The position numbers and the translations under genes are program-made. Under the pieces are notes generated by a model. That model saw only the letters and a program-made list of their open reading frames with translations, was not told the DNA's origin and did not search any database. This document shows positions 1 to 64,000 of a DNA stretch of 64,000 nt, in pieces (the stretch's first letter is position 1; every line of letters begins with the position of its first letter). Origin of the DNA: Amphiscolops sp. MND2022 (taxonomy: Eukaryota). Location: NCBI GenBank assembly GCA_964187785.1, contig OZ076409.1:75208001-75272000 (forward strand), read 5' to 3'.

Positions 1-2698
1 GCTCACATCACCCCACACGCCGGAAATGCCCAATTTGTCACTTCCGGTCGCAATTTTTGACTTTTTTGGATGGAGTCGAAGCCCATTTCCGATGTGAAGG
101 AGTGGGTTGAGCGCTCTGACCACGATATACTAAAAGTAGGTTTAGACAAAGTCCTTTCAAGAAAAAAGTAATGTGAGCCCGTAACTATCACCCCCTCACC
201 GGAAATAGGGGTCACGCCTCCTTTTTCTGTGCTGCAAAAGTGACATGTGCACATTTGTCCAACTCCGAAGCCCCGGAGCACCGTGGGACCCGTATACTTT
301 CTAAACACCAATCCCACACGCTACCGGAAGTGACCGGAAGTTTCACCGGAAATGACATCCTTGGACCGGAAATGGTCAAAAAATGACTTTTTTAATGCAA
401 AATAGACACAATTGGTGCGATTTTTAGGCAAAAAGCATAATTCGTGAAACGCTTGTTGCAGTTGGAAGGGCCATTGTTCAGCAAGAATGCGTACAGCATT
501 ACGTAGCACATCAAGTAGTTGATTCTTTTTCGTCCATAATATCCATAGGACCGGAAATGGCCATTTTTGAATCGGAAACGTCTTCAGCTTGATTTTTAAC
601 AGGTTTTTCCGCAATATTAGCGTAGGAATTGCTCGTCGGATGCTGTAGGTCTATTTCAAAACTAGCTGACTGCTTCTTAGAAATGTATTTCAGAAGTTCC
701 AACTAATTCCAGATGACCGGAAATGGGAGTAATTGCCTCCTTTATGACCTTTGAAAGATAGATTGTTAAAATCCGCAAATTATTTTATTCCACAATTGTT
801 GCTCAGGTTATATCTAAGCAATAACATCTGCTTGTTATGAAGTGCTGTAATGTGGGAGATACAAATATTGCTTTTTAATAGTTTTACATACGTGATATCC
901 GCCGCAATAAGGATTTTTCAAACCAACCATTTTGAAGTCCTACTGGTGTTCCGCACACCCGAAGCTATTTAAGTTTCTAGTTTCGATTTTCAGGCTTCCG
1001 CGACTATTTAGTTGAGATGATAGTTTTCACGTTCTCTGCAAAACGGGCATTTCATTGTGTATTTGACATTTATTGGGCTGTTTCACATTGTATTTCAAAA
1101 CTAATTGATCATACAATTTGGAACAATTGAAAATTTTTAATTGAACAAAAAATGTTTTAATACTTTCTCTTTCGTTGAAGATACTCTTTTGTGGCCATTA
1201 GAACAGGTTGAATTAGTTGAATAAGTAACCAGTGCGATACATCGTTTAATACATAGCGTTTGACATCGGTTTTTTTCGCGAACAAAGACAAGCTTGATTT
1301 GTTGGAAGTTTTTACCATATCGCTTCAAATCGGGTGTGACAAACAATGAATTTCTCGTTTTAATTGCTACTTCGAAAGCAACCTGAAAACGCAAATCGAT
1401 CTATTGAATTATGGAGATGAAACTAAGCATTTCAAGTCTGGGTTTCAATTTAATTCTATCACTCCGGACTATTTTCATGTCGCAAGAGTGATAAAGGGTG
1501 TTAGCAAGGTTAAAAACATCGAACAATTTCAATAATAAAGCCTCCGGAAAAAGAAGAAAAAATGAGTTTTCCTGTCAAAACAATGATAACCACGTACGAA
1601 ACCTCAAGCTTTTGTATTGTTCAATAGTCCAAAACGTGAATGAAGTTTTTAAATATCCAAGAGTTTCTAATCAAGCATGCGTTTCAAATGTCTCACAGGG
1701 CAGCATCGTTTTCAAAAAACAGTGCTTTCAATATGGTTTCATACCAGCAAAACGAACGCAGGCAAAACCACATTCTCAAAATTTTTGCACAATAACCAAT
1801 TTCTGTGGAAATCCTGTTTGATTCCTCAGGGTATATGGTGAGAACCCTGTTGGGTTCCAAAGTTGATGAGCTGTTTTCTTGGGTTTGCGAGATAAGTTAC
1901 AACGGAAATCTGAAAGCAGGTCGTCTTAATAAAATACCTGTTGCTCTTCAAACGAATGGACTTAAGTAGTCGAAATTTATTCTCAGACACTTTCGATCAG
2001 AGGATGTTTGAGTCCTAACGTTCGAATCAGGTTGGTTTCAGGTGGCTCGAAGTGCCAGCTGAACCAACTTTTTGAATAAAGAAAAACCCCACACCTCCCT
2101 TCATGCCACGCTACCCCGTATAGCGTTTCAACTTGACAGAAATTGGAACGTTTGATTTTGGCGTTGCTTGGGATTGACACAGCAGTGTTGATACTACATT
2201 TGGCAAAGAGAAATCGCAGAATTGATTGTTTCTGTTTTTTCCCTGTTGATTTAGTCTGTCGAGCGTACAAAGCAGTTTGGGAAACTAACTTGCATTTCCA
2301 CTGAACGAAAAAAAGTAGTAGCCTTGCAAACTCCTGGAAAAGATTGAATCAGGTTTCCCTATTTGTGAGATCAACTGTCACTCAATTATCATTTACTTTT
2401 TTAAAAAATTTTTAGGAACATCTAAACTTACTCTGCTCGACTCTCTTGAATAATGCAACAATCGTTTACTGATCTGTACTCGTGAGAAAAAAATCAACTG
2501 CAGGTCCAAAAACAATCTATATATCTTTGGTTTATTCCGTGCAAAGCTTTTTTTCACACCATGTGACTCAACTATTACATGTATGTAATGAAACCAATAA
2601 CACCTTCAACTATCAACGCCCACCGTCCGTAGGCATGCCGAGGCATGCCTTTCGACGACGCGCGCCGGAAACAATCTAACGGCGCCACCCGCTTCTGG
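1..2698 (+). mobile_element. Cassette 1 (3.07-kb family, left part outside the window)
   Basis: Colinear with 3076-5769. Ends with the 47-bp core (2614-2660) and CTGG|GTG. Mobile nature is inferred. Confidence 0.6.
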
Positions 2699-5600
2699 GT
2701 GGTCAGTGCTGTTGCGTTCATTTTTTTCCGGCCGTGGGGGAGGGCCCCTCTGAGGCCGGTCATTTTTCAGGTAACAGCTTTCTTATACAAAAAAGCGGGA
2801 AAAAACCTCAGTGCTCAAATCCCAACCGTCAGAATGAGCTGAAATTTGGCATGTAGCTAGTGCATTGCAAATGATTAGGATGGGTTATAACGCTATGTTT
2901 GGCAAAATTGGTTTTGTTGCATTTTTTTTGTCATATAGGGCCAAAAATGGCCTTTTTTGCGTATTTTTTGCTTGACTAGCTAATAACTCGCGTTGGGTTG
3001 GTACTAGCGATACGGGTGTGGGGTATGGAATTGAAAGATTACCAAGTACCTTGCTGATGACGTTATTTGATTTCCGCTCACATCACCCCCACGCCGGAAA
3101 TGCCCAATTTGTCACTTCCGGTCGCAATTTTTGACTTTTTTGGATGGAGTTAAAACCCATTTCCGGTGTGAAGGAGTGGGTTGAGCGCTTCGACCCCAAT
3201 ATACTAAAAGTAGGTTTAGACAAAGTCCTTTAAAGAAAATAGTATTGTGAGCCCGTAACTATCACCCCCTCACCGGAAATAGGGGTCACGCCTCCTTTTT
3301 CTGTGTTGCAAAAGTGACATGTGCACATTTGTCCAACTCCGAAGCCCCGGAGCACCGTGGGACCCTTATACTTTCTAAACACCTATCCCACACGCTACCG
3401 GAAGTGACCGGAAGTTTCACCGGAAATGACATCCTTGGACCGGAAATGGTCAAAAAATGACTTTTCAATGCAAAATAGACACATTTGGTGCGATTTTTAG
3501 GCAAAAAGCATAGTTCGTGAAACGCTTGTTGCAGTTGGAAGGGCCATTGTTCAGCAAGAATGCGTACAGCATTACGTAGCACATCAAGTAGTTGATACTT
3601 TTTCGTCCATAATATCCTTAGGACCGGAAATGGCCATTTTTGAATCGGAAACTTCTTCAGCTTGATTTTTAACAGGTTTTTCCGCAATATTAGCGTAGGA
3701 ATTGCTCGTCGGATGCTGTAGGTCTATTTTAAAACTAGCTAACTGCTTCTTAGAAATGTATTTCAGAAGTCCCAACCAATTCCAGAATACCGGAAATAAG
3801 AGTAATTGCCTCCTTTATGACCTTTGAATAATAAATTGTTAAAATCCGCATATTATTTTTTTCCACACTTGTTGCTGAGATTATATCTAAGCAATAACAT
3901 GTGCTTGTCATGAAGTGCTGTAATGTGGGAGTTACGAATATTGCTATTTAAGAGTATTACATACGTGAATATCCGCCGTAATAAAGATTTTTTAAAACAA
4001 CCACTTTTGAAGTCCTATAGATTGTCCGCACACCCGAAACAATTCAAGTTTCTAGTTTCGATTTTAAGGCTTCCGCGACTATTTAGTTGAGATGATAGTT
4101 TTCACGTTCTCTGCAAAACGTGCATTTCATTGTGTTTTTGACATTTATTGGGCTGTTTCACATTGTAATTCAAAACTAATTGATCATACAATTTGGAACA
4201 ATTGAAAATTTTCAATTGAACATTAAATGTTTTAATAGTTTCTCTTTCGTTGAAGATACTATTTTGTGGCCATTAGAACAGGTTGAATTAGTTGAATAAG
4301 TAGCCAGTGCGATACATCGTTTAATACATAGCGTTTGACATCGGTTTTTTTGCGAACAAAGACAAGCATGATTTGTTGAAAGTTTTTACCATATCGCTTC
4401 AAATCGGGTGTGACAAACAAGGAATTTCTCGTTTTATGTGCTACTCCGAAAGCAACCTGAAAACGCAAATCGATCTATTGAATTATCGAGATGAAACTAA
4501 GCATTTCAAGTCTGGATTTCAATTTAATTCTATCACTCCGGTCTATTTTTATGTCGCAAGAGTGATAAAGCGTGTTAGCAAGGTTAAACACATCGAACAA
4601 TTTTAATAATAAAGCCTCCGGAAAGGGAAGAAAAAATGAGTTTTTCTGTCAAAACTATGATAACCACGTACGAAACATCAAGTTTTTGTATTGTTCAATA
4701 GTCCAAAACGTGAATGAAGTTTTTAAATATCCAAGCGTTTCTAATCAAGCATGCGTTTCAAATGTCTGACAGGGCAGCATCGTTCTCAAAAAACATTGCT
4801 TTCAATGTGGTTTGATACCAGCAAAACGAACGTAGGCACAACCAGATTCTCAAATTTCTTGCAAAACAGCCGATTTCTTTGAAAATCCTAATTGATTTCA
4901 CAGGGTATATGGTGAAACCCTGTTGGATTCCAAAAATGAAAAGCTGATTTCTTGGGTTTGCGAGATAAAAGACAACGGGAATCTGAAAGCAAGTCATCTC
5001 AATAAAATACCTGTTGCTCTTTAAACAAATGGACTTTAGTAGTCGAAATTTTTTCTCAGACACTTTCGATCAGAGAATGTTTGAGTCCTAACGTTCGAAT
5101 CAGGTTGGTTTCAGGTGGCTCGAAGTGCCAGCTGAACCAACCTTTCAAATAAAGAAAAACCCCACATCTCCCTTCATGCCACGCTACCCCGTATAGCGTT
5201 TCAACTTGACAGAAGTTGGAACGTTTGATTTTGGCGTCGCTTGGGATTGACACACCAGTGTTGATACTAAATTTGGCAAAGAGAAATCGCAGAAATGATT
5301 GTTTCTTTTTTTTCCCTTTGATTTAGTCTGTCGAGCGTACAAAGCAGTTTGGGAAACTAACTTGCATTTCCACTGAACGAAAAAAAGTAGTAGCCTTGCA
5401 AACTCCTGGAAGAAATTGAATCAGGTTTTCCTATTTGTGAGATCAGCTGTCACTCAATTATCAATTACTTTTTTAAAAATTTTTAGGAACAACTAACCTA
5501 ACTCTGCTCGACTCTCTTGAATAATGCAACAATCGTTTACTGATCTGTACTCGTGAGAAAAAAATCAACTGCAGGTCCAAAAACAATCTATATATCTTTG

Positions 5601-5769
5601 GTTTATTCCGTGCAAAGCTTTTTTTCACACCATGTGACTCAACTATAACATGTATGTAATGAAACCAATAACACCTTCAACTATCAACGCCCACCGTCCG
5701 TAGGCATGCCGAGGCATGCCTTTCGACGACACGCGCCGGAAACAATCTAACGGCGCCACCCGCTTCTGG
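2699..5769 (+). mobile_element. Cassette 2 (3.07-kb family, complete)
   Basis: Junction-to-junction length 3071 bp. Left hairpin at 2728-2759, core at 5685-5731. Diverged tandem copy of cassette 1. Confidence 0.6.
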
Positions 5770-6593
5770 GTGGTCCGGGGCTTATTTTGCCCCACAAGAA
5801 ACTTTGCGAGGCCGGGGAGGGTCCCGATTGCCGAGCATCAGAAACCAGAAATACATCACTAGTCCACCGGGTCGGATTTCGGCGATTTTGGAATCTAACC
5901 ATACGATTTTAATAAAACTTTGCACACATACCTAAAATCAAATTATAAGAACTTTTTTCCCCTGACGTATCATCATTGAAACATTTGTTGAAAAGTTATG
6001 TGCAAATGATCGTGTTTTTTGGTACTTTTTCGCATTTTTCACACAATAGCTCCACACTTTACGCTATGCATTTGGCCCATTTTTTGCGTGCAAGGCAGTT
6101 ATGATGTCATGTTCACACATGCCAAAAATTATTTCTCAATTCGCAACAGGAGTGGAGATATGGCGGATAATATAGGCGGAAAATTTACCGAATACGAAAA
6201 TTTGCACATATTTGGCCAACATTTGTTTCAAAAATGAGAAAAATCAAAAGGTCCGCGGATTGCGTTGAAACTTGGCACACAGGTAGTAGAACAAATTCTA
6301 AGAACTTTTTTCTTCTGACATTTTTCCGAAAAATTGCATCTTTAACCTATATTTGCAATATTTTGGGTTTTTTGATTCAAGGTGATTTATCACTCACATA
6401 TTCAAAGTCCATTTTCAGCATGAAGCAACGCAGATACCGGCAATGTGCACATTTTAGAAAATCATCAACGACCAACGGTCTACCGAACGGTCCAAAAAAA
6501 TTTTGCCCTCGGGCCCAATCAAAGTGGCCAAAGGTGCCAAAATGTTTTTTCTAACAGTATCACCATTACAAAATTGATGATTTGACCAGGAGG

Positions 6594-7790
6594 AACGGTC
6601 CGCACGGTCTCGGACCATAAGGTGAAAAAGTGTCAGTGAGTTATGGTGACAACCAAAATGACATCGGTAGACCTCTAGGAGGCCTCTGAAAAAAATTGAT
6701 TTTTTTGAGTCACGGTCCGAGTTGATCTGTTACGTTGTATGAACATTTCATAATCATGTTACTCATAACCGGGTGCAGATAGCACCGTTGGTCATCTTTA
6801 TCAAAATGAACATTGGGCAGCGGTCTAACGATTGAGTGTAAAAAATATACCTTAGTTGCTATTGTGAAAGAAAAAAATTCTCAGAAGTGTTGTTTTCGAT
6901 TTTTCATATCGACTCGCAGTTACAAAAAGGTGATTTTCTCTTCAGGAACGGTCCGAACGGTCTAGGACCATAAGGTCAAAAATTGTCAGTGTGACATGGT
7001 GGCGCCCAAAAACCCATCAGAACACTTGTAGGAAGCTTCTGAAAGAATATCGGATTTTTACGTGGGTCCGAGAGTTATACTGTCACATCGTAACAACATT
7101 TCGGGTATGCATATCTCCTGACAGAGTACAGATAGCATCATGGATCACCTTTTCGAAAAAGAACGTGGGCCACTGGTCTATCGATTGGTCATAAAAAGTT
7201 TTCAGTCACTGCTGCACGGCGTGCACAATATGCCAATATGGGGTATTTAGCAATTTTTTGCACGACTCGGACCTACAAAAGTCCCATTTCTGCTCCACCA
7301 ACGGTCCGTACGGTCTTGAACCATAAGGTCAAAAAGTGTCAGTGTGCTATGGTGACGCCCAAAAACCCATCAGTACACTTGTAGAGTGCTTCTGAAAAAT
7401 TTTGGAATTTTTAGGTGAGTCCGAGAGTTATAGAGAGTTATGTTGTCACATCGTAACTACTTTTCGGGTATGTATATCTCCTGACAGAGTACAGATAGCA
7501 ACATGGGTCATCTTTTGGAAAATAAACGTGGCCCACTGGCCTACCGAATGGTGATAAAAAGTTTTCACTAGTTGCTACAGGGAATGATAAAAGTGCTTAC
7601 ATGTGTTACTTACCATTTTTTTAGGCGACTCGGACTTACAAAAAGCTTATTTGCTCGCCAACAACGGTCTCTACGGTCTCCGACCATAAGGTCAAAAAAG
7701 TTTTGTGAGCTATGGTGACGCCCAAGAACCCATCAGTTTACCTGTAGGATGATTCTGAAAAAATTTGTTTTTTTCCAGTTCACTATGTTA
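6594..7790 (+). repeat. Internal tandem subrepeat of about 353-363 bp
   Basis: The motif AACGGTCnnnACGGTCTnnnACCATAAGGT recurs at 6594, 6947, 7300 and 7663. Confidence 0.85.
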
Positions 7791-9629
7791 GATATTACAT
7801 GGCGAACCGTGTTATTTTTCCAACAAAATTATGTTTTTGAGTGCCCGAAATTAGTTTTTAAAGCACAATAGCCACATAAAATGTTGTTTTGCATAACATG
7901 GGATGTGAATAACATGAAAAAAGTGCCCACTATGGGTTTGGGGTCATTTTGAAAAAATCAGCTGCCATTGGACGTTACACATCAGAAAATCATACCGCAC
8001 ATATCAATATATGGGTTGAGTGAAAAATAGCTTAAATGATTTTTCAGTCAATCAAGACCCTTTTTTGTTCACAACCACGTGTACAGCTGACGTTGAACGC
8101 ATATTGATCTTCCGCAATGGTTACATTACGATTTTGAGTGACAAAAGCCCCGTTGACAAACAAAATTCCAAGATAAAGTTTGTTTCCAAATCATTTTTTG
8201 ACGTATACGACCGCCAATTTCTGCCCACACACATCAATTATCCACTTCTCTTAGTCCAGTGGCATGTGAAAAACACAACTAGGCATTGACAATCCACATA
8301 CACTATAAATCGAGTAGTCATGGGCAACAATATTTACAAATCAGTAGTGAAATTTGTCTAAAATTGATAACACATAACAATTTTGTTGGAATCAAACTAG
8401 CAAAATGGAGGTTTATCAGCAACTTTTGGCTTTCACAGCAACCCACTGGCCCTGTAATATAGGAAAAGGGTGTTTACCGAACTTTTAAGGTTATATTTCA
8501 GAGTCTGAGGTAGCTAAAAGTATCATACTGAAGAGACGCATGACTTCAACTTCAGTATTTTTCCCGATGTGTCAGCACTTTTTTGGTATCGGCGGTCCCA
8601 CCAATATTGTTTTTGGTCTGACACTAAACCTTAGGATCAACCAAGGTGGATACCAGACTTGAAAAATCATTGCAAGGAATTTCGACATGTCAAAAGTAGT
8701 GATGACAGGAGATATTTCCCAAAAATTCCAGTTATTTGTCACGTTCCATTGTGCCTTTTTTAATCGGTCCTTGTCGGTTATGGTATTAACGCTCAACAAC
8801 AACCTCACTGACAACAAACAACTCGTTTATAGTTATAAAAAGTATTTATAATACAACCATGCTCGGTCTGGACAGGTTTTTCATCCCATTCGTTGTTAAC
8901 AAGCAAATTTTTTTTCCCAAAAACCCAATTTTTGTCAGGTCGAAAATTGATTTCCCGTGTTTTGAACAACATTATTGTGTCTGACGTAACCTGTGGCCTC
9001 CAAAATACTGAAAAACAGATATATGACTGGTATCAAATGCTTCATTGACATGTGAGCCACGATAACACGTTTTGCAAAGAAAAATTTAACTTTTAAGTTA
9101 AAATTTTGAAGACACATTTTCATAATAAAAACAAAATTCATAAAAAGTAACTTATTTCCCGTCAAATACTATTGATATACTATCAGTGTTGCTAATATGA
9201 GGTCTATACAGCGGTGTATGGGAAAAATGTGGCGCATAAAGCATTGTGTAACACAAAACTTTCCAAAGTACTGCGCATTTTTCACTGTACTTTTTGGACT
9301 CTATGACAAAAATTTGATAGTGTAAACATCAATGAGCAGTTCAATTTAGTACGATTATTCAACTGTGCATATGTTTCAAAGTGCACGATCTTTCTGTTGT
9401 TCCAAAATCCTTTGTTACGGCTGAAAAGATTCATATGTTTTACAACGCAATGTTCATTAAAAGATAAATTAGCAAAGACTGAATCAATATTACAAAAGCT
9501 AACAAACTTCTCAATACGTCTTTCAGTACTTGGATTTTGCAGACTATATAGATCTGATTTGCATTTTTATAAAGACATTATAACTGAATCTTGCATTTTT
9601 ATAAAGAACTTATAAAAAAAATTTCGTGA

Positions 9630-9668
9630 TAGCCTTCCAAGTTGGCCTTCGGCCAACTTGGAAGGCTA
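9630..9668. repeat. Perfect 18-bp inverted repeat (subterminal hairpin type B)
   Basis: TAGCCTTCCAAGTTGGCC-TTC-GGCCAACTTGGAAGGCTA. Related copies at 12769-12811, 23692-23735 and 62279-62322. Confidence 0.95.
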
Positions 9669-10669
9669 GCACTCCAAATACCAGAAAACAGGAGTTCCTT
9701 TATTCTCAAAATAGCTGTGGACAGTTTCATTCAACTTTCTTTTCTCACGTTAATTGATAAAATCAGAACATAAACATTTCCATTCGCTATAAGGAGATCA
9801 TAATTGAGTTCCATAAAAACATCTTTCATTGTGTCGCTTAAAAATACCATAAAAACAAACTTGAAACATATGAATTGTATGTGGAACGTACATTCTATTT
9901 ACCAGTGAGTGTCTACCCTTATTGGCTCCACCAAATCCTCTAACCCTCCACTAGACAGTACGTTACATCATACGTTGATGTATTTCACAGTGGTGACATA
10001 GGGCCAAAAAAAAACGAAATGGAGTGTATGCATTGCTAATGTTATTAAGTCAGCCAATTGTGGTAGGAAAGGTTCAATACTACGAAAAATATCTATTCCA
10101 ACTGAAAATGATTTGGGGCAAACACATGGAACACAAAAATACCTCAATAATTTTCACCAATCAATTTCTTCCACAAAAACTTTTGTGTCCGATGGTGTAT
10201 AATTTCCTAATTTGGAATCAGCCAGTCACGTCATTTTCACATCTCAGCTCGGTCATAACAGAGCGTTCTTTTTTGAAATTGTCTCTACCCAATTTCACGT
10301 AACGAGGCTGCTACGTCCCCTATTTGGAGTGTTATCAGTGTTTATAAGGGATTTATCACTCTAATGAACATATACTTCTAATGTTGAAACTCTTTCACTT
10401 TTCTTTGTAAATTGTTAAAGTAGAACATTGCTGTTATTCAGCAGGAACTCGCTTTGGCTTGCAGAATGATGGAAAATAAATGACAAGTCGCCCTGTAAGG
10501 CACCACGTGTCGTGGGGATGACAAATATGAAACAAGTTGAACACAACAAAGCCTACTTTTGTCAACAGAAGGGAAAACGAATATTTTAATTTTGAAAATT
10601 TTTATGTTTTTTAATACACATTTTCCTCGCATCTCGGCAGTGCAACTGCAACAACCTCGCCTCCACTGG

Positions 10670-11702
10670 GTGGTCACGGGTATACCCTACCACAATATTT
10701 GCGAGGTGGGGGAGGGGCCCCGAGTCCGAGCCATGCTGTCAGATTTCTATCTAGGATGAGGGGTCCAGAAAAACAGCGATTTTGGAATTGAGCCATACGA
10801 TTTGAATGAAACTTTGTGTGTGGGTAGATCTTAAAATTATAAGAACTTTTTCCCTCTGGCAAAACATGGTTGCAACACTGTGTTGGAAGTTATGAACAAA
10901 TGATCGGTTTTTTCACCTATTTTCGGCATATTTACGCCTCGGTACAACCAGCCTGTGGATACAATTGGCTGAAACGTTGCATGCGAGGCATAAATGAAGT
11001 GAAGTGTTTGCATGTCAAAAATCATTAGGCTGGTGACACTAGGCTGAGAGATAGAAGTGGAAAAAGAAGTGGAAAATTGTGAATTCTCCGGTCATTGCGT
11101 CATAACTTCCGAATTTTTGTATTGATGATGTTTCCTTCAGCGGTAGCAGTACTTTGGAGATGGTTTCATCATCACGTAGTGAGGATAAAAAATAAAAAAT
11201 AAAAAAGTTCTTCAAAAGTTCTACAAAAATTCTAAAATTTAAGAATTTTTCAAAAAAAAAAGATTTTCTCGTTTTTCGATGCTTTTTCACATTTTGAGTA
11301 CGAAAATGACGTAGCCCTGCACTTACGATCGCTATTTGAAGGATTTTCACATACCTCTTCCTCAATGTGTGGCCACTGTACAGAACTAATTGTTCTTTTG
11401 TTAGAAGTCCCGCCATTGTTTGCGGAAAAAGGTTCAAGAAACAACTTCTCCGTTGTTCCTGAGAAATGCGAAGCAGTTCGCAGGAACAACGGATAGAATT
11501 AACAAAGTACCCGGGTGGTTGGAATGAAAGATATGTAATCATCTGATAACTGATGAAAAACAGAGTTTTTCATCAGTTGAAAAGACGAAAAACGTTTCCA
11601 TGGATGTCACTCAAAGTGAACAGTACTGGTAGCGTATTTAAAAATATAATTCGACAGAAGCCGCCCGCCCACTCTGGTAATTAGTTTCCTTGCCTCCACT
11701 GG
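10670..11702 (+). mobile_element. Cassette 4 (1.04-kb family, no terminal core)
   Basis: 1033 bp. Homologous to 18738-19783, sharing the GGATACAATTGGCTGA block and the terminal TTGCCTCCACTGG|GTG. Confidence 0.55.
11449..11493. repeat. Subterminal hairpin type C
   Basis: TCCGTTGTTCCTG...CAGGAACAACGGA with an imperfect inner stem. Homologous hairpin at 19535-19584 (GTCACCGGTGTTCC...GGAACAACGGTGAC). Confidence 0.85.
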
Positions 11703-39600: not shown

Positions 39601-40224
39601 ACCAATTATCATCAATTGCAGTTGCCTAGTGCAAAAACGTCTTTCAAGGACAATTTATTCGTTTTCCTAACTGTCCAAATTGCTTTTAAATTCAGTTAGC
39701 AAGAAACAGTTGAGTACATTCTCATCTCTCCCCATAGGGTGAGATGAGAATGTTCTTGCTAAAAGCCAGGTACTACGGCCCACTTTTGTTTTAATGTGAC
39801 GCATTTTGTGCTTTAGCACATAGATACTTTTATTTCGTCTGACTTTTCGTAGACACTCTGACTTGTCATTATAAATTTTTCGTCATTACTTTACATAAAC
39901 TTAATACCATACAACTTTAACTTCAACGCCACATACATTTAGACGCCCACTATTCCGTAGGTACGCCGCGGCATGCCTTTCGACGACGTATGTCAAAACG
40001 CAAACGCAATAAAAAGTGCTGAAATTCAGAAACAGTGACAAACAAATTTGACTACTTGAAATATGGGAGGTTTTTATGTGGAACTTACACATAGCTGAAA
40101 TTTCACAACATTGTAGCTGACGCCCACATGCCAACATCAACGCCCACCGTCCGTGGGCATGCCGAGGCATGCCCTTCGACGACGTATAGCAAATCCCTTC
40201 CACCGACGCGCACTCTCCCGCTAG
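33691..40224 (+). mobile_element. Cassettes 18-20 (2.18-kb family)
   Basis: Starts at 33691, 35877 and 38055; lengths 2186, 2178 and 2170 bp. Degenerate second cores at 35593, 37767 and 39941. Confidence 0.6.
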
Positions 40225-52200: not shown

Positions 52201-55200
52201 TTTTTGAAAATTTTTCTAACGGTCCAGCTTATCTTTGCCATTTTTTCAAAAATGCACTCGCCTAAAGGCCTCCCCTGGCCGGTTTTATTCCCAGCAAAAC
52301 CATTTGGCCCTAAATACGGAGTTTCAGCGTTCCAGCATTCCCGGGCGAAAAGTTGTGGGACTTAGAAAAATTTCAAAATTTTTCAAAAATTTTTTTTCCG
52401 TTTTCCGCCCTCCCCCCCGAGGGGAAAAGACCCCCCAACCAGTAATTTGAGTGAATTCATGTGGAAAGGCCATGTTTAGAGGAGAAAAATGCCGTTTAGA
52501 TCGTCTTTTTATTTTAACCTGTCGTTGACTTATGTTGTTTTGAAGGTGATGTTTGGATGTGTGAAGCATGTGAAAAGGTAATTTATTGTGTCTTTAGCTC
52601 TTCTAAAAGCCATTGAGATACAAGGTGTAGCACTCAGAACGTGTTTAATTCTAAATTAGCAATGCATCAACACTTTTTGTGTCTTTGGACTCTGTTAAAA
52701 AAATTTTTCCGACTAAAATCAAAAATTATTTATAATTATTCACATTTTTTTCTGATCTCATGACTCGAAACAGTTGAGTACATTCCATCTCCCTTCCCGG
52801 GGGAGATGAGAATGTACTCTCTAAAGACCAGGTACTACAGTACTTACCTTCCCCGAGCAACGCCCCATAAAAATTGCGTTTTGATCATTCTATTTTGACA
52901 TAATTCTATCTTTGTAATTTGACTGGAAATGAAGAAAATCCGCACGTGCTCTTTTATATCAAGTATCTTAACAACGCCATCTCTTTAACGTCAACGCCCC
53001 ATAGTTCACATCAACGCCCACCGTCCGTGGGCATGCCGAGGCATGCCCTTCGACGACGTATGCCAAAGATATTCCCGAGCGCGTTAGCCTAGGTGCCCGG
53101 ATTTCTATTCATTAAAGTATGTTGCGCGTGTGGGTAGGGCCCCTGGCGCGCTCTTGTGTCCCTGTTCTCATAACTGCAATTTCCGGCAGCATTCTGAGCG
53201 ATTTTCTAAACTATCCATACGATTTGGCTGAAATTTGGCACACGTACCCCCCTCGGCACGGTGAAGATGATTTCCTACTGACGTTTTTCCCGCAAAATTT
53301 TTTTTGTTGTCCAAAATAACGGTTTTTGGGGTAAAATTTTGAACTTTTTTTAAATTTCATCTTATATCTCGCCACGGGTTTACGCTAGCGCTTCAAAACC
53401 CTGCTAAAGAAAGCTTGCAAACTGTCTCAGGAATGCGGTGTGAAATTTTCAGCTCAATTGGACTTAAACTCAGGGAGATATAGCGTTTTTCCGGAGCGGG
53501 GGGGTTTCATTTTTCTAACGGTCCAGCTTATCTTTGCCATTTTTTCGAAAATGCACTCGCCTAAAGGCCTCCCCTGGCCGGTTTTATTCCCAGGAAAACC
53601 ATTTGGCCCTAAATACGGAGTTTCAGCGTTCCAGCATTCCCGGGCGAAAAGTTGTGGGACTTAGAAAAGTTCAAAAGTTTTCAAAAAAATTTTTTTCCGT
53701 TTTCCGCCCTCCCCCCCTAGGGGAAAAGACCCCCCAACCAGTAATTTGAGTGAATTCATGTGGAAAGGCCATGTTTAGAGGAGAAAAATACCGTTTAGAT
53801 CGTCTTTTTATCTTTATTCAACGTTGACTTATGACGTTTTGAAGGTGATGTTTGGAGGTGTGAAGCACGTGAAAAGTAAACGTTATGAGTATTTATCTGA
53901 TCTGAAAGCCATTGAGATGCAACCTGTTTTGCTCAAAATGTAATTCATATCAGTTTGGTAGTCAATCAACACCCTTTGTTGTCATTTGACATCTTTTTTT
54001 GTTGATATAAGAAAAAATTTTGTGTATTTATTCATTTTTTTCTCATCAAATAACTTGAAACAGTTGAGTACATTCCATCCCCCCTTCACGGGGGAGATGA
54101 GAATGTACTCGCAAAAAGCCCCGAACTACGGCCCTTACCTTCCCGAGCTACGCAGTATAAGGATTACATATTGGTTACGACATTTTCATAGAGTTAAATC
54201 TTGGTAATCTGTCTGGATATGCAGAAAAACCAGCACGTGCTTTTTTATACCAAGTTGCTCACAACGACATTTATTTTATATCAACGCCCCCATATTTATC
54301 AACGCCCCCCGTCCGTGGGCATGCCGAGGCATGCCCTTCGACGACGTATACCAAGATATACTTCGAGCGCGTTAGCCTAGGTGCCGGGATTTCCATTCGA
54401 TAAGGAATTCTGCGCGTGTGGGTAGGGCCCCTGGCGCGCTCCTGTGTTTTCGGTTTTCCTACTCCTAAATAGACCCCCTGAATTCCGGGATCTCCCAAAC
54501 TATCCATACGATTTGGCTGAAATTTGGCACACGTACCCCCCTCGGCACGGTGAAGATGATTTCCTACTGACGTTTTTCCCGCTAAACATTTTTTGTTGAC
54601 CAAAATAACGGTTTTTGGGGTAAAATTTTGAACTTTTTTTAAATTTCATCTTATATCTCGCCACGGGTACACGCTAGCGCTTCCAAACCTTGCTGACGAA
54701 AGTTTGCAAACTGTCTCAGGAATGCTGTGTGAAATTTTCAGCTCAATCGGACTTAAACTCGAGGAGATATAGCGTTTTCCCGGAGCGGGGGGGTTTCAAT
54801 TTTCTAACGGTCCAGCTTATCTTTGCCATTTTTTCGAAAATGCACTCGCCTAAAGGCCTCCCCTGGCCGGTTTTATTCCCAACAAAACCATTTGGCCCTA
54901 AATACGGAGTTTCAGCGTTCCAGCATTCCCGGGCGAAAAGTTGTGGGACTTAGAAAAGTTCAAAAATTTTCAAAAAAAAATTTTTCCGTTATTTGGGCCC
55001 TCAAAGTGGGGGAAAAGACCCCCCAACCAGTAAAGCAAGTGAATGCATGTGGAAAGCCCTTGTTTAGACGAGAAAAATGCCGTCTAGAACGTCTTTTTAT
55101 CTTAACTTGACATTGACTTTTGTCGTTTTGAAGGTGACCGTTAGATACGGAAAATTGATGTTTTGAGTATTTATCCCATCTGAAAGCCATTGAGATACAA

Positions 55201-58200
55201 CATGTTTTGCTCAAAACGTGTTTCATTGCAGTTTCGCTGTCCATTATCACCCTTTGGTGTCTTTTCACGTAATTTTCGTTTCTATAATAACAATTTTTTT
55301 GTGTATTTATTCATTTTATTCTCATCAAATAACTTGAAACAGTTGAGTACATTCCATCTCCCTTCCCGGGGGAGATGAGAATGTACTCGCTAAAGGTCAG
55401 GAACTACGGTCTATATCTTCCACAACACAAATGGGATTGCAAATGGTTTCAGTTTGTCGCAGAAAACTTCTTTTTGCCCTCTGTGACTCGACAAAATGAA
55501 CGTTTCTTACTTACTTTGAAACTCAGCATACCACAACTCATCTCTAACGTCAGCGCCCCCCTACTTGCATCAACGCCCACCGTCCGTGGGCATGCCGAGG
55601 CATGCCCTTCGACGACGTATACCAAGATATACCTGGAGCGCGGTAGCCGCTAGGTGCCGGGATTTCCATTCGATAAGGAATTCTGCGCGTGTGGGTAGGG
55701 CCCCTGGCGCGCTCCTGTGTTTTCGGTTTTCCTACTCCTAAATAGACCCCCTGAATTCCGGGATCTCCCAAACTATCCATACGATTTGGCTGAAATTTGG
55801 CACACGTACCCCCCTCGGCACGGTGAAGATGATTTCCTACTGACGTTTTTCCCGCTAAACATTTTTTGTTGACCAAAATAACGGTTTTTGGGGTAAAATT
55901 TTGAACTTTTTTTAAATTTCATCCTATATCTCGCCACGGGTACACGCTAGCGCTTCCAAACCTTGCTGACGAAAGTTTGCAAACTGTCTCAGGAATGCTG
56001 TGTGAAATTTTCAGCTCAATCGGACTTAAACTCGAGGAGATATAGCGTTTTCCCGGAGCGGGGGGGTTTCAATTTTCTAACGGTCCAGCTTATCTTTGCC
56101 ATTTTTTCGAAAATGCACTCGCCTAAAGGCCTCCCCTGGCCGGTTTTATTCCCAACAAAACCATTTGGCCCTAAATACGGAGTTTCAGCGTTCCAGCATT
56201 CCCGGGCGAAAAGTTGTGGGACTTAGAAAAGTTCAAAAATTTTCAAAAAAAAATTTTTCCGTTATTTGGGCCCTCAAAGTGGGGGAAAAGACCCCCCAAC
56301 CAGTAAAGCAAGTGAATGCATGTGGAAAGCCCTTGTTTAGACGAGAAAAATGCCGTCTAGAACGTCTTTTTATCTTAACTTGACATTGACTTTTGTCGTT
56401 TTGAAGGTGACCGTTAGATACGGAAAATTGATGTTTTGAGTATTTATCCCATCTGAAAGCCATTGAGATACAACATGTTTTGCTCAAAACGTGTTTCATT
56501 GCAGTTTCGCTGTCCATTATCACCCTTTGGTGTCTTTTCACGTAATTTTCGTTTCTATAATAACAATTTTTTTGTGTATTTATTCATTTTATTCTCATCA
56601 AATAACTTGAAACAGTTGAGTACATTCCATCTCCCTTCCCGGGGGAGATGAGAATGTACTCGCTAAAGGTCAGGAACTACGGTCTATATCTTCCACAACA
56701 CAAATGGGATTGCAAATGGTTTCAGTTTGTCGCAGAAAACTTCTTTTTGCCCTCTGTGACTCGACAAAATGAACGTTTCTTACTTACTTTGAAACTCAGC
56801 ATACCACAACTCATCTCTAACGTCAGCGCCCCCCTACTTGCATCAACGCCCACCGTCCGTGGGCATGCCGAGGCATGCCCTTCGACGACGTATACCAAGA
56901 TATACCTGGAGCGCGGTAGCCGCTAGGTGCCGGGATTTCTATTCGATAAAGTATGTGGCGCGCCTTGGGTAGGGTCCCTTGCGCGCTTTTGGGTATGGTG
57001 TTCACCAGCTAGGAAATAGGGGTCGATTTTTCGGGATCTCCTAAACTAGCCACACGATTTGGCTGAAATTTGGCACACGTACTCCCCTCGGCACGGTGAA
57101 GATGATTTCCTACTGACGTTTTTCCCGCAAAATTTTTTTTGTTGTCCAAAATAACGGTTTTTGGGGTAAAATTTTGAATTTTTTTTAAATTTTATCTTAT
57201 ATCTCGCCACGGGTTTACGCTAGCGCTTCAAAACCCTGCTAAAGAAAGCTTGCAAACTGTCGCAGGAATGCGGTGTGAAATTTTCAGCTCAATCGGACTC
57301 AAACTCAGGGAGATATAGCGTTTTTCCGGAGCGGGGGGGTTTCATTTTTCTAACGGTCCAGCTTATCGTTGCCATTTTTCGAAAATGTACTCGCCTAAAG
57401 ACCTCCCCTGGCCGGTTTTATTCCCAGCAAAACCATTTGGCCCTAAATACGGAGTTTCAGCGTTCCAGCATTCCCGGGCGAAAAGTTGTGGGACTTAGAA
57501 AAGTTCAAAAATTTTCAAAAAATTTTTTTCCGTTATTTGGGCCCCCAAAGTGGGGGAAAAGACCCCCCAACCAGTAAGGCAAGTGAATGCATGTGCAAAG
57601 CCCTTGTTTAGAGGAGAAAAATGCCGTTTAGAACGTCTTTTTATCTTGGCTCAACGTTGACTTATGACGTTTTGAAGGTGATGTTTGGAGGTGTGAAGCA
57701 CGTGAATAGTAAACGTTATGAGTATTTATCTGATCTGAAAGCCATTGAGATGCAATATGGTTTGCTCAAAACGTAATTCATGGCAGTTTGGCAATCAATC
57801 AACACCCTTTGTTGTCGTTTGACATACTTTTTTGTTGTTATAATAAAAAATTTTGTGTATTTATTCATTTTTTTCTCATCAAATAACTTGAAACAGTTGA
57901 GTACATTCCATCCCCCCCTTCCGGGGGAGATGAGAATGTACTCGCAAAAAGCACCGAACTACGGCCCTTACCTTCCCGAGCTACGCAGTATAAGGATTAC
58001 ATATTGGTTCCGACATTTTCATAGAGTTAAATCTTGGTAATCTGTCTGGATATGCAGAAAACCAGCACGTGCTTTTTTATACCAAGTTGCTTACAACGAC
58101 AATTATTTTATATCAACGCCCCCATATTTATCAACGCCCCCCGTCCGTGGGCATGCCGAGGCATGCCCTTCGACGACGTATACCAAGATATACGTCGAGC

Positions 58201-60764
58201 GCGTTAGCCTAGGTGGCCGTGTCTTTTCGACGTGCTTTTGCATTGAGGAGTGGGTAGGGCCCCGCGACGACCTAGAAGAATTGGATGCTCACCGAAACGT
58301 GCAGAATTCTACGAGATCTCATAGTTTGAGCCATACGATTTTTCTGAAATTTGGCATGTGGCCTGGAATTGGTGAGTAGGTAAAACGTGTAGGAGGTGAT
58401 TTTTCCCAAATTCCACTGTGAGACGAGATATGGGCAAATAACGGTCCCAAAAATGGCAAAAATGCACTTTTTTCAAGTTTGTCAGCCCATATCTCGTTCC
58501 CAGGTGCCCGGAGCGGGACGCGTTAAGCTGATTATAAACTCTAGGGTGCTGAGGCTGTACGGTGAACTTGGGCCCGTTCCGATCCGACTTGTAGTCTTGG
58601 AGAAATAACGGTATTTTTGGGGAACCTTTTCTAACGGTCCAGCTTATCTTTGCCATTTTTTCGAAAATGTACTCGCCTAAAGGCCTCCCCCTGGCCGAAT
58701 TTACTCCCAGCAAAACCATTTGGCCCTAAATACGGAGTTTCAGCGTTCCAGCATTCCCGGGCGAAAAGTTGTGGGACTTGGAAAATTTTCAAAAATTTTC
58801 AAAAAATTTTTTTTTCGTTTTCCGGGCCCCCAATGAAGGGGAAACGACCCCCCAACCAGTATTTTGAGTGAATTCATGTGGAAAGCCCTTGTTTTGACGA
58901 GAAAAATACCGTTTAGAACATCTTTTTATCTTGACTCAACGTTGACTTATGACGTTTTGAATGTGATGTAAGGATGTAGGAGGCATGTGATAAGTTGATG
59001 TTTTGAGTCTTTATCTCATATGAAAGCGGTTGAGATGCAAGCTGTCCTGCTCAAAACGTCTTTCGTTGTAATTTTCCAGTGCACCAATACCCTTTGGTGT
59101 CATATAAACATACTTTTTGTCGATATATTAACAATTTTAATGTATTTATTCCAATTTTTATTATCTTATAACTCAAAACAGTTGAGTACATTTCATCTCC
59201 CTTTCGGGGGAGATGAGAATGTACTCGCTAAAGACCTAGCGCCATGACCAAAAGTTTGAAACCCACGTTTTTTATCTTCTTACAGACTTGTTTTTGTATT
59301 TTTTCGGAATTTTTTAAAAATTAATATACTTGAAATACATTACTTGACTTTACTACTACAACCCACCTCCAACGACAACGCCCCCCTGCTTGCATCAACG
59401 CCCACCGTCCGTGGGCATGCCGAGGCATGCCCTTCGACGACGTATGCCAAATGCCCAGTGCCACGCAGTCATTATCGCTAGGTGGCCGGAAATTTTTTTT
59501 TTCAGCAAAATCTTTGCCATTGGGGGAGGGGCCCCGGATGGCCAGTAGTACGGCATAGCTCCCTACGGAATCCAGGCGGAAAAAACGTGATTTTGGAAAC
59601 TAGCCGTCAGAATTTGCTCAAATTTTGCATACGGCTTCCTATAACAATCCTAAGAACTAATCCCTACTGGCATTTTGCCCAAAAAACGCAAAAAGTTGGT
59701 CAAAATCTTAGTTTTTTGGTCAAAAAATGGCGTTTTTTCGAAAAAAATTTTTTTCAGAGACAATTACTCGTAACTGGTTCACCCAGCGCAAAAACGCCTA
59801 GCTGATTTATTGTTGGGCACTTCATGAGGAGTGCGTATACAAACTTTCGTCCAAATCGGATGAAAGTTGATTGAGAAATAACAGAAAATTTGAGGCATTT
59901 TTTTGGAAATTTTTGAAATCCCAGTCTATCTCTGCCGTTTTTTGCCCAGATTTTTTTCCAGACACTCTCCTAAAGACCTCCCCTGGCCGGTTTACCTCCC
60001 AGCAAAACCATTTGGCCCTAAATACGGAGTTTCAGCGTTCTAGCATTCCCGGGCGAAAAGTTGTGGGACTTAGAAAAAATTTTTGGAAACGCAAAATGTG
60101 TAAAGTCAACTTCAGGCCTCCCAAAGTCAAGAAACTTCCACACAACTAGTATTGCAAGTGAATGCATGTAGAAAGTACTCGAATAGACAAGGAAAATGGG
60201 CTATAGAACGACTCTGTAGCTTAACTTGACGTTGACTTATGACATTTTGAGTGTGAGCGTCCTATAGGATTTTAATGTCAAAAATGAGATTTTGTAAGTC
60301 ATGAGTCATCAAAAACTCATCGGAATACGTTCAATCATCCCCATAGCTGTTCAATCACCGTTGCTTAGTAGAGCAACGCCATTATATGTCTTTGGACCCA
60401 TTTTAAAAATTTTCCTTACCGTCTTATTCGTCCGATATCACGAAACAGTTGAGTACATTCCATCTTCCCCCTTGTGGGGGAGATGAGAATGTACTCGCCA
60501 AAGACCTGATACAATGACCCATATTGGTTTTTATTTGACTTTTCTCACAATATTGCACACGGATAGCTGTGTTTGGTAAAAGTTTTCCTTTGCACCATGT
60601 CTCCAGAAGCAAAACCACTTCTTTAGCTTACTACTTCTACTCAAACATCACTAACGTCAACGCCACATACTGGCATCAACGCCCACCGTCTGTGGGCATG
60701 CCGAGGCATGCCCTTCGACGACGTATGCCAAATAGCGCCGCAGGGCGCCCCCAATTTCCGCTAG
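40225..60764 (+). mobile_element. Cassettes 21-36 (sixteen 1.27-1.31-kb units)
   Basis: Starts at 40225, 41511, 42822, 44094, 45362, 46650, 47921, 49211, 50498, 51783, 53093, 54381, 55654, 56927, 58213 and 59482. Near-identical pairs are 24/12, 28/14 and 33/32. Confidence 0.65.
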
Positions 60765-62742
60765 GTGCGGGGGGGTAACCCCAACTTTTTTCTTGGAGGA
60801 ATCGGGTAGGGTCCTGATTCCGAGTTCAGTGCCGCCAGCTATCGTTAAAAACCTATACCTTTTAAACCCGATCTCGAGAACTAACCACGCCCCTTCTTTG
60901 ATTTTTTGGCCCCCACTCACTTTTTGATAGTAGATCGCCCCCCACTGGGTTCCAAGTTGGGCAAAAATGGAGGTCAAGGGTAACGGGGACCGTTAAGGGG
61001 TAACTCAGGGGGTAAAATTTATTTTTTGCGTCATATCTTTTCCCCCCGTGGATTTAGCGCTTCCGGTCAGCAGACAAAACCTCATGTACGTGATACGGGG
61101 CCTCCGTAGGTCCAAACAAAATTTTTCTATCATGCACCGTTACGGACTTGCCCCCCCCCGGCCCAACCGTTATTTTGCCGGAAATTGCACTTTTTGACCG
61201 GGAAGGAGTCGTCTGAGCACGGAGTCGTTTGGTAATGTTTTGTAGTGCATCTGGAGACGTGTTGGGGGACATGTAGTTTGCCGGCCCCAGTTTACCCCCC
61301 GGACGGGAAATGACCGTTATGTGAGTTTTAAAATTACCCCCCTTCAATTTTCCCCGTTATTTCCGGTGTGAAGGAGTGGGAGTAGCGCGTCGGGTGCCAT
61401 ATATCAAAAGTAGGTTTAGACAAGGACCAACCGGAAACATGTGGTTTGGGACCCCCTGACCCAACCCGTTAGCCGTTATAAGGGTGATCGCCTCCTTTTT
61501 TTACACTCAAAACCGGAAAACGGGTATTGAGGGGTAAATATCTCGTGAACGCGTGGAGCAATCGTGTCCATCACTACTACAAGGTTTCATACCCATGATA
61601 TGGTGCCTTCAGGGGGGCAAACAGATTACCGCTATCTATCACCGTTACGGACTTGGCCCCCCAGCCCAACCGCTATGTGACCGGAAATGTCACTTTTTGA
61701 GCCCAAAGGGTCGATCGCAGCCTGGGAACGTTAGGTAACTTATTGTAGTACTCATTGAGACGAGTTGGGGGACATAGTTTCAGTCACCCCCCGTTACCCC
61801 TTAGGACCGGAAATGACCGTTTTGTGAGTGAAATTGCAATTTTTATACTTTTTGAAAGGCATTTAGGTGCAGAAGGAGTGGTAATAGGTGCTTGGACACT
61901 ATATAATGATAAGGAGGACGTGAGGCGAGCATTCGAAAAAAACCGTTATGTTGACCCCAAAGTCCCCCTGGTACCGTAAATGACCGGAAATGGTCAAATT
62001 TTGTGTTTAAAGGGTACAAATGTTTGGTGTTTTATGGATAACAGTACCTATTAGGTGTTTCGACGGTATGCAGTTGTGAACATAGTCATGAAACCTTGTG
62101 GGGGGTAACGGTATATAGCACCGGAAGTCCAAAACGTTGGAGACAGGATAAGTTTTTTGGTTTTAAAACGTCTTTCGGCCTACTTTTGTCGACTATTATG
62201 GTCTATTTTTGAAAAATAAAATTTTTCCATATAGTTTCAGAGACTCCGAAACCTCAACCAACATAACCGTTACCTTATGATAGCCTTTCAAGTTGGCCTG
62301 GTGTCAACTTGGAAGGGCTATCCTTCAAAAATCATTAATCAAGTATGTTTTTGAGTATGTTTGTATTACTTTAGAATCAATTAGAGCTTAAAGGAAAGTT
62401 TGCCAACGACAAAAACTATGTCGTGATGATTCCGTTATTAGAATACTTGTTAACAAAGTTTTAAAAACGTTGATTTTTTACATATCAAATGTGTCCTAAA
62501 TGCCAGAAAACCTCTTTACCAAACAAATGGTATTGATTGAATTGTATATAACAGCTAATAAAAGTTCAAACTGAATATTACGTTTCATTTTGGAAGCTGA
62601 AACGTCATTTTATAGTTTCATTAACGTCAACGCCACATACTTTACATCAACGCCCACCGTCCGTAGGCATGCCGAGGCATGCCTTTCGACGACGTATACC
62701 AAATTCCTTTAACACAACACCCCCGAGCGCGGTAGCCGCTAG
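60765..62742 (+). mobile_element. Cassette 37 (1.98-kb family)
   Basis: 1978 bp. Left hairpin at 60798-60821, internal duplication of about 505 bp, hairpin B at 62279, core at 62648. Confidence 0.6.
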
Positions 62743-64000
62743 GTGCGGGGGGGTAACCCCAACTTTTTTCTTGGAGGAATCGGGTAGGGTCCTGATTCCG
62801 AGTTCAGTGCCGCCAGCTATCGTTAAAAACCCATACCTTTTAAACCCGATCTCGGGAACTAACCACGCCCCTTCTTTAATTTTTTGGCCCCCACTCACTT
62901 TTTGAGAGTAGATCGCCCCCCACTGGGTTCCAAGTTGGGCAAAAATGGAGGTCATGGGTAACGGGGACCGTTAAGGGGTAACTCAGGGGGTAAAATTTAT
63001 TTTTTGCGTCATATCTTTTCCCCCCGTGGATTTAGCGCTTCCGGTCAGCAGACAAAACCTCATGTACGTGATAAGGGGCCTCCGTAGGTCCAAACAAAAT
63101 TTTTCTATCATGCACCGTTACGGACTTGCCCCCCCGGCCCAACCGTTATTTTGCCGGAAATTGCCTTTTTTGACAGGAAAGGAGTCGTCTGAGCACGGAG
63201 TCGCTTGGTAATGTTTTGTAGTGCATCTGGAGACGTGTTGGGGGACATGTAGTTTGCCGACCCCAGTTTACCCCTCGGACGGGAAATGACCGTTATGTGA
63301 GTTTTAAAAATGCCCCCCTTCAATTTTCCCCGCAATTTCCGGTGTGAAGGAGTGGGAGTAGGGTGTCGGGTGCCATATATCAAAAGTAGGTTTAGACAAG
63401 GACCAACCGGAAACATGTGGTTTCGGACCCCCTGACCCAACCCGTTAGCCGCTATTAGGGTGATCGCCTCCTTTTTTTGCTGTTAAAACCGGAAAACGGG
63501 CATTGAGGGGTAAATATCTCGTGAACGCGTGGAGCAATCGTGTCCATCACTACTACAAGGTTTCATACCCATGATATGGTGCCTTCAGGGGGGCAAACAG
63601 ATTACCGCTATCTATCACCGTTACCGACTTGGCCCCCCAGCCTAACCGCTATGTGACCGGAAATTGCACTTTTTGAGCCCAAAGGGTCGATCCTAGCCGG
63701 GCAACGATAGGTAACATATTGTAGTACTCATTGAGACGAGTTGGGGGATCTAGTTTCAGTCACCCCCGTTACCCCTTGAGACCGGAAATGACCGTTATGT
63801 GAGTAGAATTGCAATTTTTATACCTTTTGAAGGGCATTTAGAAGCGGAAGGAATGGTAATAGGTGCTTGGACACTATATGATGTAATGGAGGTCGTGAGG
63901 AGAGCATTCGGAAGTAACCGTTACGTTGACCCCAAAGTCCCCCTGGTACCGTTAACAACCGGAAATGGCCAGATTTTGTGTTTGTAGGGTACAAATGTTT
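62743..64000 (+). mobile_element. Cassette 38 (1.98-kb family, truncated by the window end)
   Basis: Closely similar tandem copy of 60765 to about 62020. Confidence 0.6.

Follow-up and report, generated by a model that had tools for sequence, protein, structure and literature searches.

The 64,000-nucleotide stretch of DNA analysed here, called the window, comes from Amphiscolops sp. MND2022 (assembly GCA_964187785.1, 1.07 Gb; contig OZ076409.1, hereafter C1, positions 75208001-75272000). It belongs to a multi-megabase, one-way array of elements from a divergent rolling-circle, Helitron-type lineage. The array has probably grown by insertion targeted to the seam between a tail and the next head, which would be common to divergent families and would strongly prefer resident seams. 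With moderate confidence we extend this to a widespread and deep lineage, encoding a Rep-helicase (RepHel) with a GIY-YIG domain together with an OB-fold protein, whose enzymes are 31-51% alike and whose families have the seam and a stem-loop in common. The seams would then serve as a self-renewing landing pad, with units turning over, per seam, thousands-fold faster than bases mutate. Whole copies are gained or lost precisely where two resident copies meet, which suggests that these seams offer the elements a safe place to land.

The window contains 37 plus-strand seams, 32 reading CTAGGTG and 5 reading CTGGGTG, whereas 200 base shuffles gave 5.0 on average and never more than 13; on the minus strand the motif occurs six times, always inside units and at chance level. 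The seams delimit 38 units, two of them truncated by the window ends, and all-against-all BLAST of these units shows a single orientation, no host DNA between them, and seven length classes (3.07, 4.9, 1.04, 1.39, 2.18, 1.27-1.31, and 1.98 kb). An earlier interpretation, the sequence-only reading, had described 38 such units with every boundary CTAGGTG or CTGGGTG, and the seam count and BLAST bear it out; outside the window one CTTGGTG occurs among 162 seams in 264 kb. Its shuffled family order is also real, with 4,900 and then 1,033 bp at 5770-11702, and 1,046 and then 4,900 bp at 18738-24683. Identity is only about 76% between the two 4.9-kb units, and between the two 1.04-kb units it is 79% across half the length. 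Of the end features, the right-end hairpin core is present in 33 of 37 window right ends (it is missing from the 4.9-kb and 1.04-kb units) and the left-end loop in 32 of 37 left ends (it is missing from the 2.18-kb family). In the open reading frame scan no coding frame of the window exceeds 176 amino acids (aa) from stop to stop, and the Rfam and transfer RNA (tRNA) scans of the window returned nothing. The window units are gene-less Helitron-type elements and very probably not integron cassettes. A ribosomal DNA, small nuclear RNA or tRNA array, a long terminal repeat or terminal inverted repeat element, and a plain satellite were each ruled out for the window.

Around the window the array is unbroken over 264 kb, with 161 complete units and 162 seams (150 CTAGGTG, 11 CTGGGTG, and 1 CTTGGTG), all on the plus strand, and array matches span about 70.5-76.5 Mb of C1. 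Genome-wide, a seam followed by the left loop was matched 4,527 times, and the reversed control 0 times. All 11 other sites sampled from the genome junction search also lie in arrays, which are found on many contigs. Four further arrays on C1, one of them partly inverted, are present among the first 100 seam-plus-loop matches listed; C1 alone therefore has at least five, which rejects the idea of one centromeric array per chromosome. Array segments of opposite orientation, at C1:23962240-23977323 versus 23979592-24017114 and at C1:76036476, represent inversions or back-to-back arrays. Canonical Helitrons of the same genome are scattered, with none of their best 22 matches in C1 70.5-76.5 Mb, and Helentrons are likewise scattered.

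The enzyme was found within the array. A 12,226-bp unit 33 kb upstream of the window has the same seams on both sides, and encodes a 2,349-aa protein and a second protein of 308 aa; it is the long, enzyme-coding unit with the same termini that the sequence-only reading had proposed to look for. Pfam places Helitron_like_N (E 1e-7) and PIF1 (E 4e-7) on the larger protein, Pif1 structures are its best PDB matches, and the HUH and Y-x3-Y motifs align in RepHel, with the first His of HUH being Gln or Tyr in two aligned families (L067 and L071). Since this enzyme is an HUH-Rep/helicase and not a tyrosine recombinase, the proposed term integron-like survives as an analogy only; and since autonomous elements are interspersed in the wider array, the description of a non-coding array applies to the window units. 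Rep was matched at 133 places in the genome, often within intact frames of 2,200-2,850 aa; C1 70.5-76.5 Mb holds 34 of these matches, every one of them in plus orientation. Ten further divergent RepHel elements (33-53% Rep identity) all lie in arrays, in the orientation of the units, with both seams seen for nine. Three copies with identical Rep regions occur on two chromosomes, and many families are intact and recently active. Two autonomous copies that are 98% identical lie on different chromosomes, and their neighbours differ on either side.

Autonomous members are 12-17 kb in size and encode an HUH-Rep, Pif1 helicase and GIY-YIG-like protein, usually with a second conserved protein. Families that share the seam have enzymes 31-51% identical. 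By their ends, window families can be paired with masters (3.07 kb with L063, 1.04 kb with L075, 1.27 kb with L065, and 1.30 kb with L021), and the enzyme cores of these four masters are 38-47% identical. The 3.07-kb units match the 14,083-bp autonomous element L063/L064 at 96% over the first 905 bp and at 96.5% over the last 86 bp. RepHel homologues comprise 2,103 representatives at E <=0.001, the named matches being annotated as Perkinsus olseni and Hyalella azteca, and Pfam calls GIY-YIG in 14 of the 19 homologues scanned. The second protein aligns across five families and has homologues in 18 of 60 metagenome loci carrying a related RepHel. It is probably an OB-fold protein, as a lead only: the assignment comes solely from look-alikes in a language-model search (POT1/CTC1/MEIOB-type OB folds, scores 0.92-0.94), and its single-sequence structure model has a predicted local distance difference test value (pLDDT) of 35.

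Every element runs from GTG to CTRG, with a stem-loop near the left end; the left end is thus GTG and not the 5'-TC of canonical Helitrons, as had been noted from the sequence. Set against the 4,527 seam-plus-loop matches, 77 core-bearing right ends lack the following G genome-wide, and 74 of these continue with A or T. Thirty of these were inspected; six were internal or mutated seams, and the second base is T in 20 of the other 24. On the left side, 13 ends of an older dispersed family, two of them from one duplicated locus, have CT at -4/-3 in 12 cases and G at -1 in 11. Both ends are visible in seven solo copies, and by eye none of the seven has a target duplication. The elements run GTG...CTAG, host targets resemble CTNG^DT, and the seam CTAG^GTG is the best case of this target; the flanks of the solo copies place the break at CTAG^GTG. 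The genome-wide search proposed earlier for solo copies and array ends thus yielded both. The existence of solo copies turns the proposed specificity for the elements' own junction into a preference, strong and not absolute. The 3' edges of arrays read CTAG^AT and CTAG^TT. Seams contain no spacer or telomere repeats, and edges and solo copies lie in ordinary DNA. A dispersed family at C1:41750, 5399338, 11541692 and 30056262 combines the left loop with a perfect CTGG^GTG flank, and has seemingly started no arrays. Within the 264 kb the last ~40 nt have been swapped among families, one tail ending a 12-kb, a 2.2-kb and a 1.26-kb element.

A perfect CTRG flank was found at 3 of 3 apparent 5' array edges and at 2 of 13 solo copies (p = 0.018), in a small sample of families of differing age in which the solo copies belong to the older family. 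A left-end pattern without CTRG gave 50 matches, mostly an unrelated repeat, with 3 of 7 inspected loci genuine; as the pattern excluded CTRG, its loci were omitted from the flank test. The unrelated dispersed repeat (L156-L185) accounts for about 40 of the 50. The left stem-loop was compared in 48 distinct variants from array loci. The sequence of the outer stem varies and its pairing is mostly kept, with a median z of -2.0 and 29 of 48 variants under -1.5. In 40 of 48 the plus strand gives the better fold, a comparison biased by G-T wobble in the G-rich strand. The kept pairing and the plus-strand folding fit a signal read on single-stranded DNA. Terminal inverted repeats reach 8 bp in 1 of 127 distinct end pairs, the same as in mismatched controls, and the longest end-to-end direct match is at most 6 bp in 121 of 127. 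A link between the G-rich left-end loop of most units, which we take to resemble a telomere repeat, and the telomere-type OB look-alikes of the second protein is pure speculation.

A tandem duplication of about 44 kb, starting at window position ~57,300, provides a natural experiment on how the array changes. At its breakpoint, non-homologous positions are joined with a 5-nt filler, which is not what an overlap mis-join gives. Across 33,877 bp, the 25 units common to copies A and B show a single substitution between them and 3 one-base indels. In the same interval, copy A has 6 private whole units and copy B has 5; these 11 lie at 9 seams, each complete and with intact neighbours. None of them copies a neighbour, and one has an identical counterpart at a distance of 163 kb. 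Where A and B differ, a perfect repeat of 7-24 bp spans the seam, which is 1-5% of the perfect homology between neighbours; host recombination would therefore leave chimeras, and chimeric units among the shared ones are 0 of 25. Per seam, units turn over about 14,000-fold faster than single bases are substituted, and at least ~2,000-fold faster at the upper Poisson bound for the single substitution. The seam-exact differences argue against unequal crossing-over and simple rolling-circle concatemers, and they support the earlier proposal of gene-less elements that shift as whole units at their own tail-head seam.

The mechanism that we propose starts from established HUH chemistry. Rep would nick at CTRG^GTG and the plus strand would be peeled off, probably closing into a circle whose joint again reads CTAG^GTG, and this strand would then be transferred to a target of matching form. 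Seams already in the array, each offering a perfect CTRG^GTG followed by the left stem-loop, would be far better targets than chance host sites. Each insertion would create one further perfect seam, so that arrays would be self-growing, and they would be mixed because all families share one seam. A founder inserted after a host CTRG would probably start an array. Segmental duplication, inversion and tail swaps of the host type would also act, in a secondary role. The OB-like protein may coat the peeled strand and GIY-YIG may nick the double-stranded target, both of which are guesses.

Several observations weigh against this account. With solo copies from an older family and a small set of edges, the nucleation rule rests on 3 edges, and apparent solo copies with a perfect CTGG^GTG flank number 4 among the first 100 matches listed. 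The 2.18-kb family is without the usual left loop, yet other units stand directly before it. Same-family neighbours are above chance (53 of 160 at the 85% level versus 27 shuffled; z 6.0), so local copying or a family preference also acts. Of 9 aligned array elements, 5 retain the GIY-YIG catalytic residues and 4 have them worn, so the nuclease is not needed by all elements; in the nearest, 12,226-bp element they are worn, the C-terminal region being GIY-YIG-like with the domain uncalled by Pfam. Finally, the duplication is compatible with gain or precise loss of units alike and cannot tell the two apart; its 11 differences have no polarity.

This lack of polarity gives room to a scheme with the same elements and enzyme, in which the seam-exact differences are mostly precise excisions, and arrays grow by multi-unit read-through copying followed by unit-wise thinning. 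The excess of same-family neighbours agrees with it, and clean Helitron excision has been suggested in maize (PMC2267711). We consider it unlikely, as families with such different enzymes are mixed at one seam, so that seam-directed insertion is needed at some time, and as the identical unit 163 kb away, the near-identical autonomous copies with different neighbours, and 68 kinds of tail-to-head combination among 130 seams all weigh against it. Less probable again, and already largely refuted, is a Helitron-derived satellite, formed from single-family rolling-circle concatemers whose order was then changed by unequal crossing-over at the hairpin core or at other homology. In its favour, bats, Drosophila, rice and maize are reported to have tandem Helitrons (PMC5148889), the duplication and the same-family runs are real, and some tails are common to several families. 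On this scheme, however, exchange should mostly use the 95-99% of the perfect homology that does not span the seam, whereas all 9 sites are seam-exact and no shared unit is chimeric; a 1,047-bp private unit without the core has only 7 bp in common at the seam. Outside copy B, tails are tied to their own head (z 19.9) and barely to the next head (z 2.4), so shuffling through the hairpin core is rejected as the main process, and like neighbours at the 95% level are only 14 of 160, compared with 9 shuffled.

The order of the units is that of the assembly, and an assembler could have jumped between copies via their shared ends. Such a chimera is very improbable, given that only 7-24 bp are shared at the differing seams, that the duplication breakpoint is a non-homologous join with filler and no overlap, and that the large frames are intact, the edges with flanking DNA clean, and arrays present on many contigs. 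The cassette-type stacking at one short core and the folded single-strand ends also recall integron-like cassettes moved by a tyrosine recombinase at the 7-bp core, an explanation that we find hardly credible. Apart from some accessory frames, RepHel and the OB-like protein are the only proteins found between the seams, and short units share their ends with RepHel elements. No tyrosine recombinase was seen among the long frames of the 264 kb and ten elements (Pfam on some frames, and by eye), with no genome search aimed at recombinases.

These elements belong to the Helitron-like superfamily, as shown by a two-Tyr HUH Rep fused to a Pif1-type helicase, the lack of target duplication, and non-autonomous copies with common ends. 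With canonical Helitrons (HLE1) they also share a CTRR-type 3' end (CTAG or CTGG at 161 of 162 seams), the upstream hairpin, and the rare insertion directly beside a resident copy. They differ in having GTG and CTNG^DT in place of TC and an A^T target (host 5' flank CT-N-G; 3' flank A or T, then mostly T), an extra left stem-loop, a fused GIY-YIG, and a separate long branch. A quick, unrooted Rep tree, which kept 128 of 190 long proteins after a motif filter that dropped 3 Helentrons and 5 array elements, splits 122 lineage rows from 6 HLE1-type rows of the same genome, representing one HLE1 family, with a Shimodaira-Hasegawa-like approximate likelihood ratio test (SH-aLRT) of 100. Pfam Rep scores are ~40 bits for the lineage and ~200 for the HLE1-type proteins of this genome, and Helraiser gave no match at E up to 1. 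With HLE2 (Helitron2, Helentron, proto-Helentron, FoHeli; PMC11417382, PMC3627910) the lineage shares hairpins at both ends and accessory OB, OTU and other domains, whereas it lacks asymmetric terminal inverted repeats, the T^T target, the 5' T, DUF6570 and the AP endonuclease. DUF6570 is found in 0 of 19 homologues and is absent from the array protein, versus 3 of 3 Helentrons of the same genome, from which the lineage is separate at 17-22% identity and SH-aLRT 100, in an unrooted second tree that dropped 8 rows, including the HLE1 row, and did not include other HLE2 subgroups or proto-Helentron. One Sphagnum (moss) HLE2 family has captured a GIY-YIG domain (PMC11417382). The lineage thus falls outside the definition of HLE1 by its 5' end, target and clade, and outside that of HLE2 by its missing inverted repeats and DUF6570 and its target.

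The telomere-capping Helitrons of Paramecium, a third clade (PMC13085455), resemble this lineage in being divergent, strictly oriented and selective of target, with many autonomous families and derivatives without open reading frames in one compartment. Compared by description only, they insert in telomeric repeats and end in CCAA, in contrast to the use here of the elements' own seam without telomere repeats, and the main text of that paper does not contain the term 'GIY'. IS91/ISCR, IS200/IS605 and Replitrons (PMC10288648) share HUH chemistry, oriented insertion by a short target, end hairpins, and usually no duplication; they are without a fused helicase, and Replitrons have a Y1 Rep and short terminal direct repeats, unlike the Y2 Rep with helicase found here.

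Canonical Helitrons are known as a pair or as single-family runs, in contrast to the thousands of seams and mixed-family megabase arrays here. One-way heterogeneous stacks are known from the Drosophila HeT-A/TART/TAHRE telomere arrays, which are safe-haven stacks of retrotransposons at chromosome ends, and from integron cassette arrays, moved by a recombinase in bacteria. The Terminons of bdelloids (PMC6431247) also form such stacks in a safe haven, again as retrotransposons at chromosome ends, and not as an internal rolling-circle DNA element. A head-to-tail pair of different Helitrons is described in the maize r1 region (PMC2267711), and tandem Helitron copies in bats and plants (PMC5148889). 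These findings, together with the moss GIY-YIG capture and the telomere-targeted Helitrons of Paramecium, are what was already known. Surprising here are the scale, one seam common to deeply divergent active families, and the sequence evidence for fast seam-exact turnover. The paper searches, with Repbase, Dfam and most subscription journals outside their scope, found neither a RepHel-GIY-YIG lineage ending in GTG...CTAG nor a megabase array of mixed families with seam-exact turnover, the papers compared including bioRxiv 10.64898/2026.09.17.752431; the tree figures and most supplementary tables of PMC11417382 may hold the lineage.

If true, the proposed seam-targeted insertion would give a eukaryotic DNA transposon a safe haven that is communal and self-targeted, and nature would offer in it a source of site-directed integrases that insert several kilobases seamlessly. 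Target choice and joining are the least understood step of the Helitron cycle. Here the target would be defined to the base, rebuilt with each insertion, and common to many active families, which makes integration directly testable. It would also offer a route to megabase heterogeneous tandem DNA without unequal crossing-over. The ends of this lineage would escape scanners for TC...CTRR and for inverted repeats, and a nicking enzyme that seamlessly inserts kilobases at a short defined seam is of practical interest.

Table 1. Features of the window, with positions counted from its first nucleotide
Feature	Position	Strand	Basis or remark
Part of a head-to-tail Helitron-type array	1..64000	+	C1:75208001-75272000
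Two 3.07-kb non-autonomous units, the first truncated by the window start	1..5769	+	seams, BLAST
4,900-bp non-autonomous unit	5770..10669	+	internal 363-bp tandem repeat; no right-end hairpin core; terminal CTGG
1,033-bp unit	10670..11702	+	79% to left end of L075/L076 autonomous element
1,389-bp unit	11703..13091	+	seams, BLAST
Two 2.19-kb units	13092..17464	+	family with a different left-end hairpin
1,273-bp unit	17465..18737	+	88.6% over 960 bp to left end of L065/L066 autonomous element
Example right-end hairpin core	18668..18685	+	8-bp palindrome, 2 nt, same palindrome; starts ~60-75 nt before seam
Example seam CTAG^GTG	18734..18740	+	break after fourth base, fixed from solo copies
Example left-end stem-loop	18770..18800	+	conserved purine-rich loop; family-specific outer stem, still pairing
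1,046-bp unit	18738..19783	+	against L075/L076 autonomous element: 85% over 744 bp of left end, last 29 nt identical
Second 4,900-bp unit	19784..24683	+	~76% to the first; different ends
Seven 1.27-1.30-kb units, several subfamilies	24684..33690	+	BLAST
Unit related to the 12,226-bp autonomous element	29817-31115	+	94.6% over 794 bp to its left end
Three 2.17-2.19-kb units	33691..40224	+	seams, BLAST
Sixteen 1.27-1.31-kb units, several subfamilies	40225..60764	+	seams, BLAST
Start of copy A of the ~44-kb tandem duplication	57294..64000	+	copy B starts ~38 kb past the window end
'Empty' seam	59478..59484	+	copy B twin holds two extra whole units (1,289 + 1,286 bp); both neighbours identical
1,978-bp unit and first 1,258 bp of a 1,994-bp unit	60765..64000	+	

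Some further observations concern the units themselves. Both long units (5770-10669 and 19784-24683) are exactly 4,900 bp despite their ~76% identity and differing ends, and their 363-bp tandem repeats lie at window 6947-7762 and 21088-21755. Unit lengths are tightly clustered across unrelated sequence, with 110 of 161 rounding to 1.3 kb and others near 1.05, 2.0, 2.2 and 3.07 kb, as if length were constrained. Accessory frames (L067:3192-3908; L076, L078, L082; P0178; P0040) include a DUF459 match below the cut-off (E 1e-5) and similar frames that look SGNH-like by eye, and OTU and Ulp1 protease domains occur in some homologues.

In metagenomes, a first scan found no relative, and the second gave the 60 loci, which are too short to reveal arrays and none of which has overlapping ends. 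The left-loop motif was present in 3 of these loci, not above the chance mean of 2.1. Two metagenome contigs (L207:207 and L209:5) carry a distant RepHel with the same purine-rich loop in a hairpin upstream of the gene. In L202, a direct repeat of ~175 bp, 93% identical between its copies at 9240-9416 and 17960-18133, flanks a related RepHel gene, and possibly marks a tandem neighbour.

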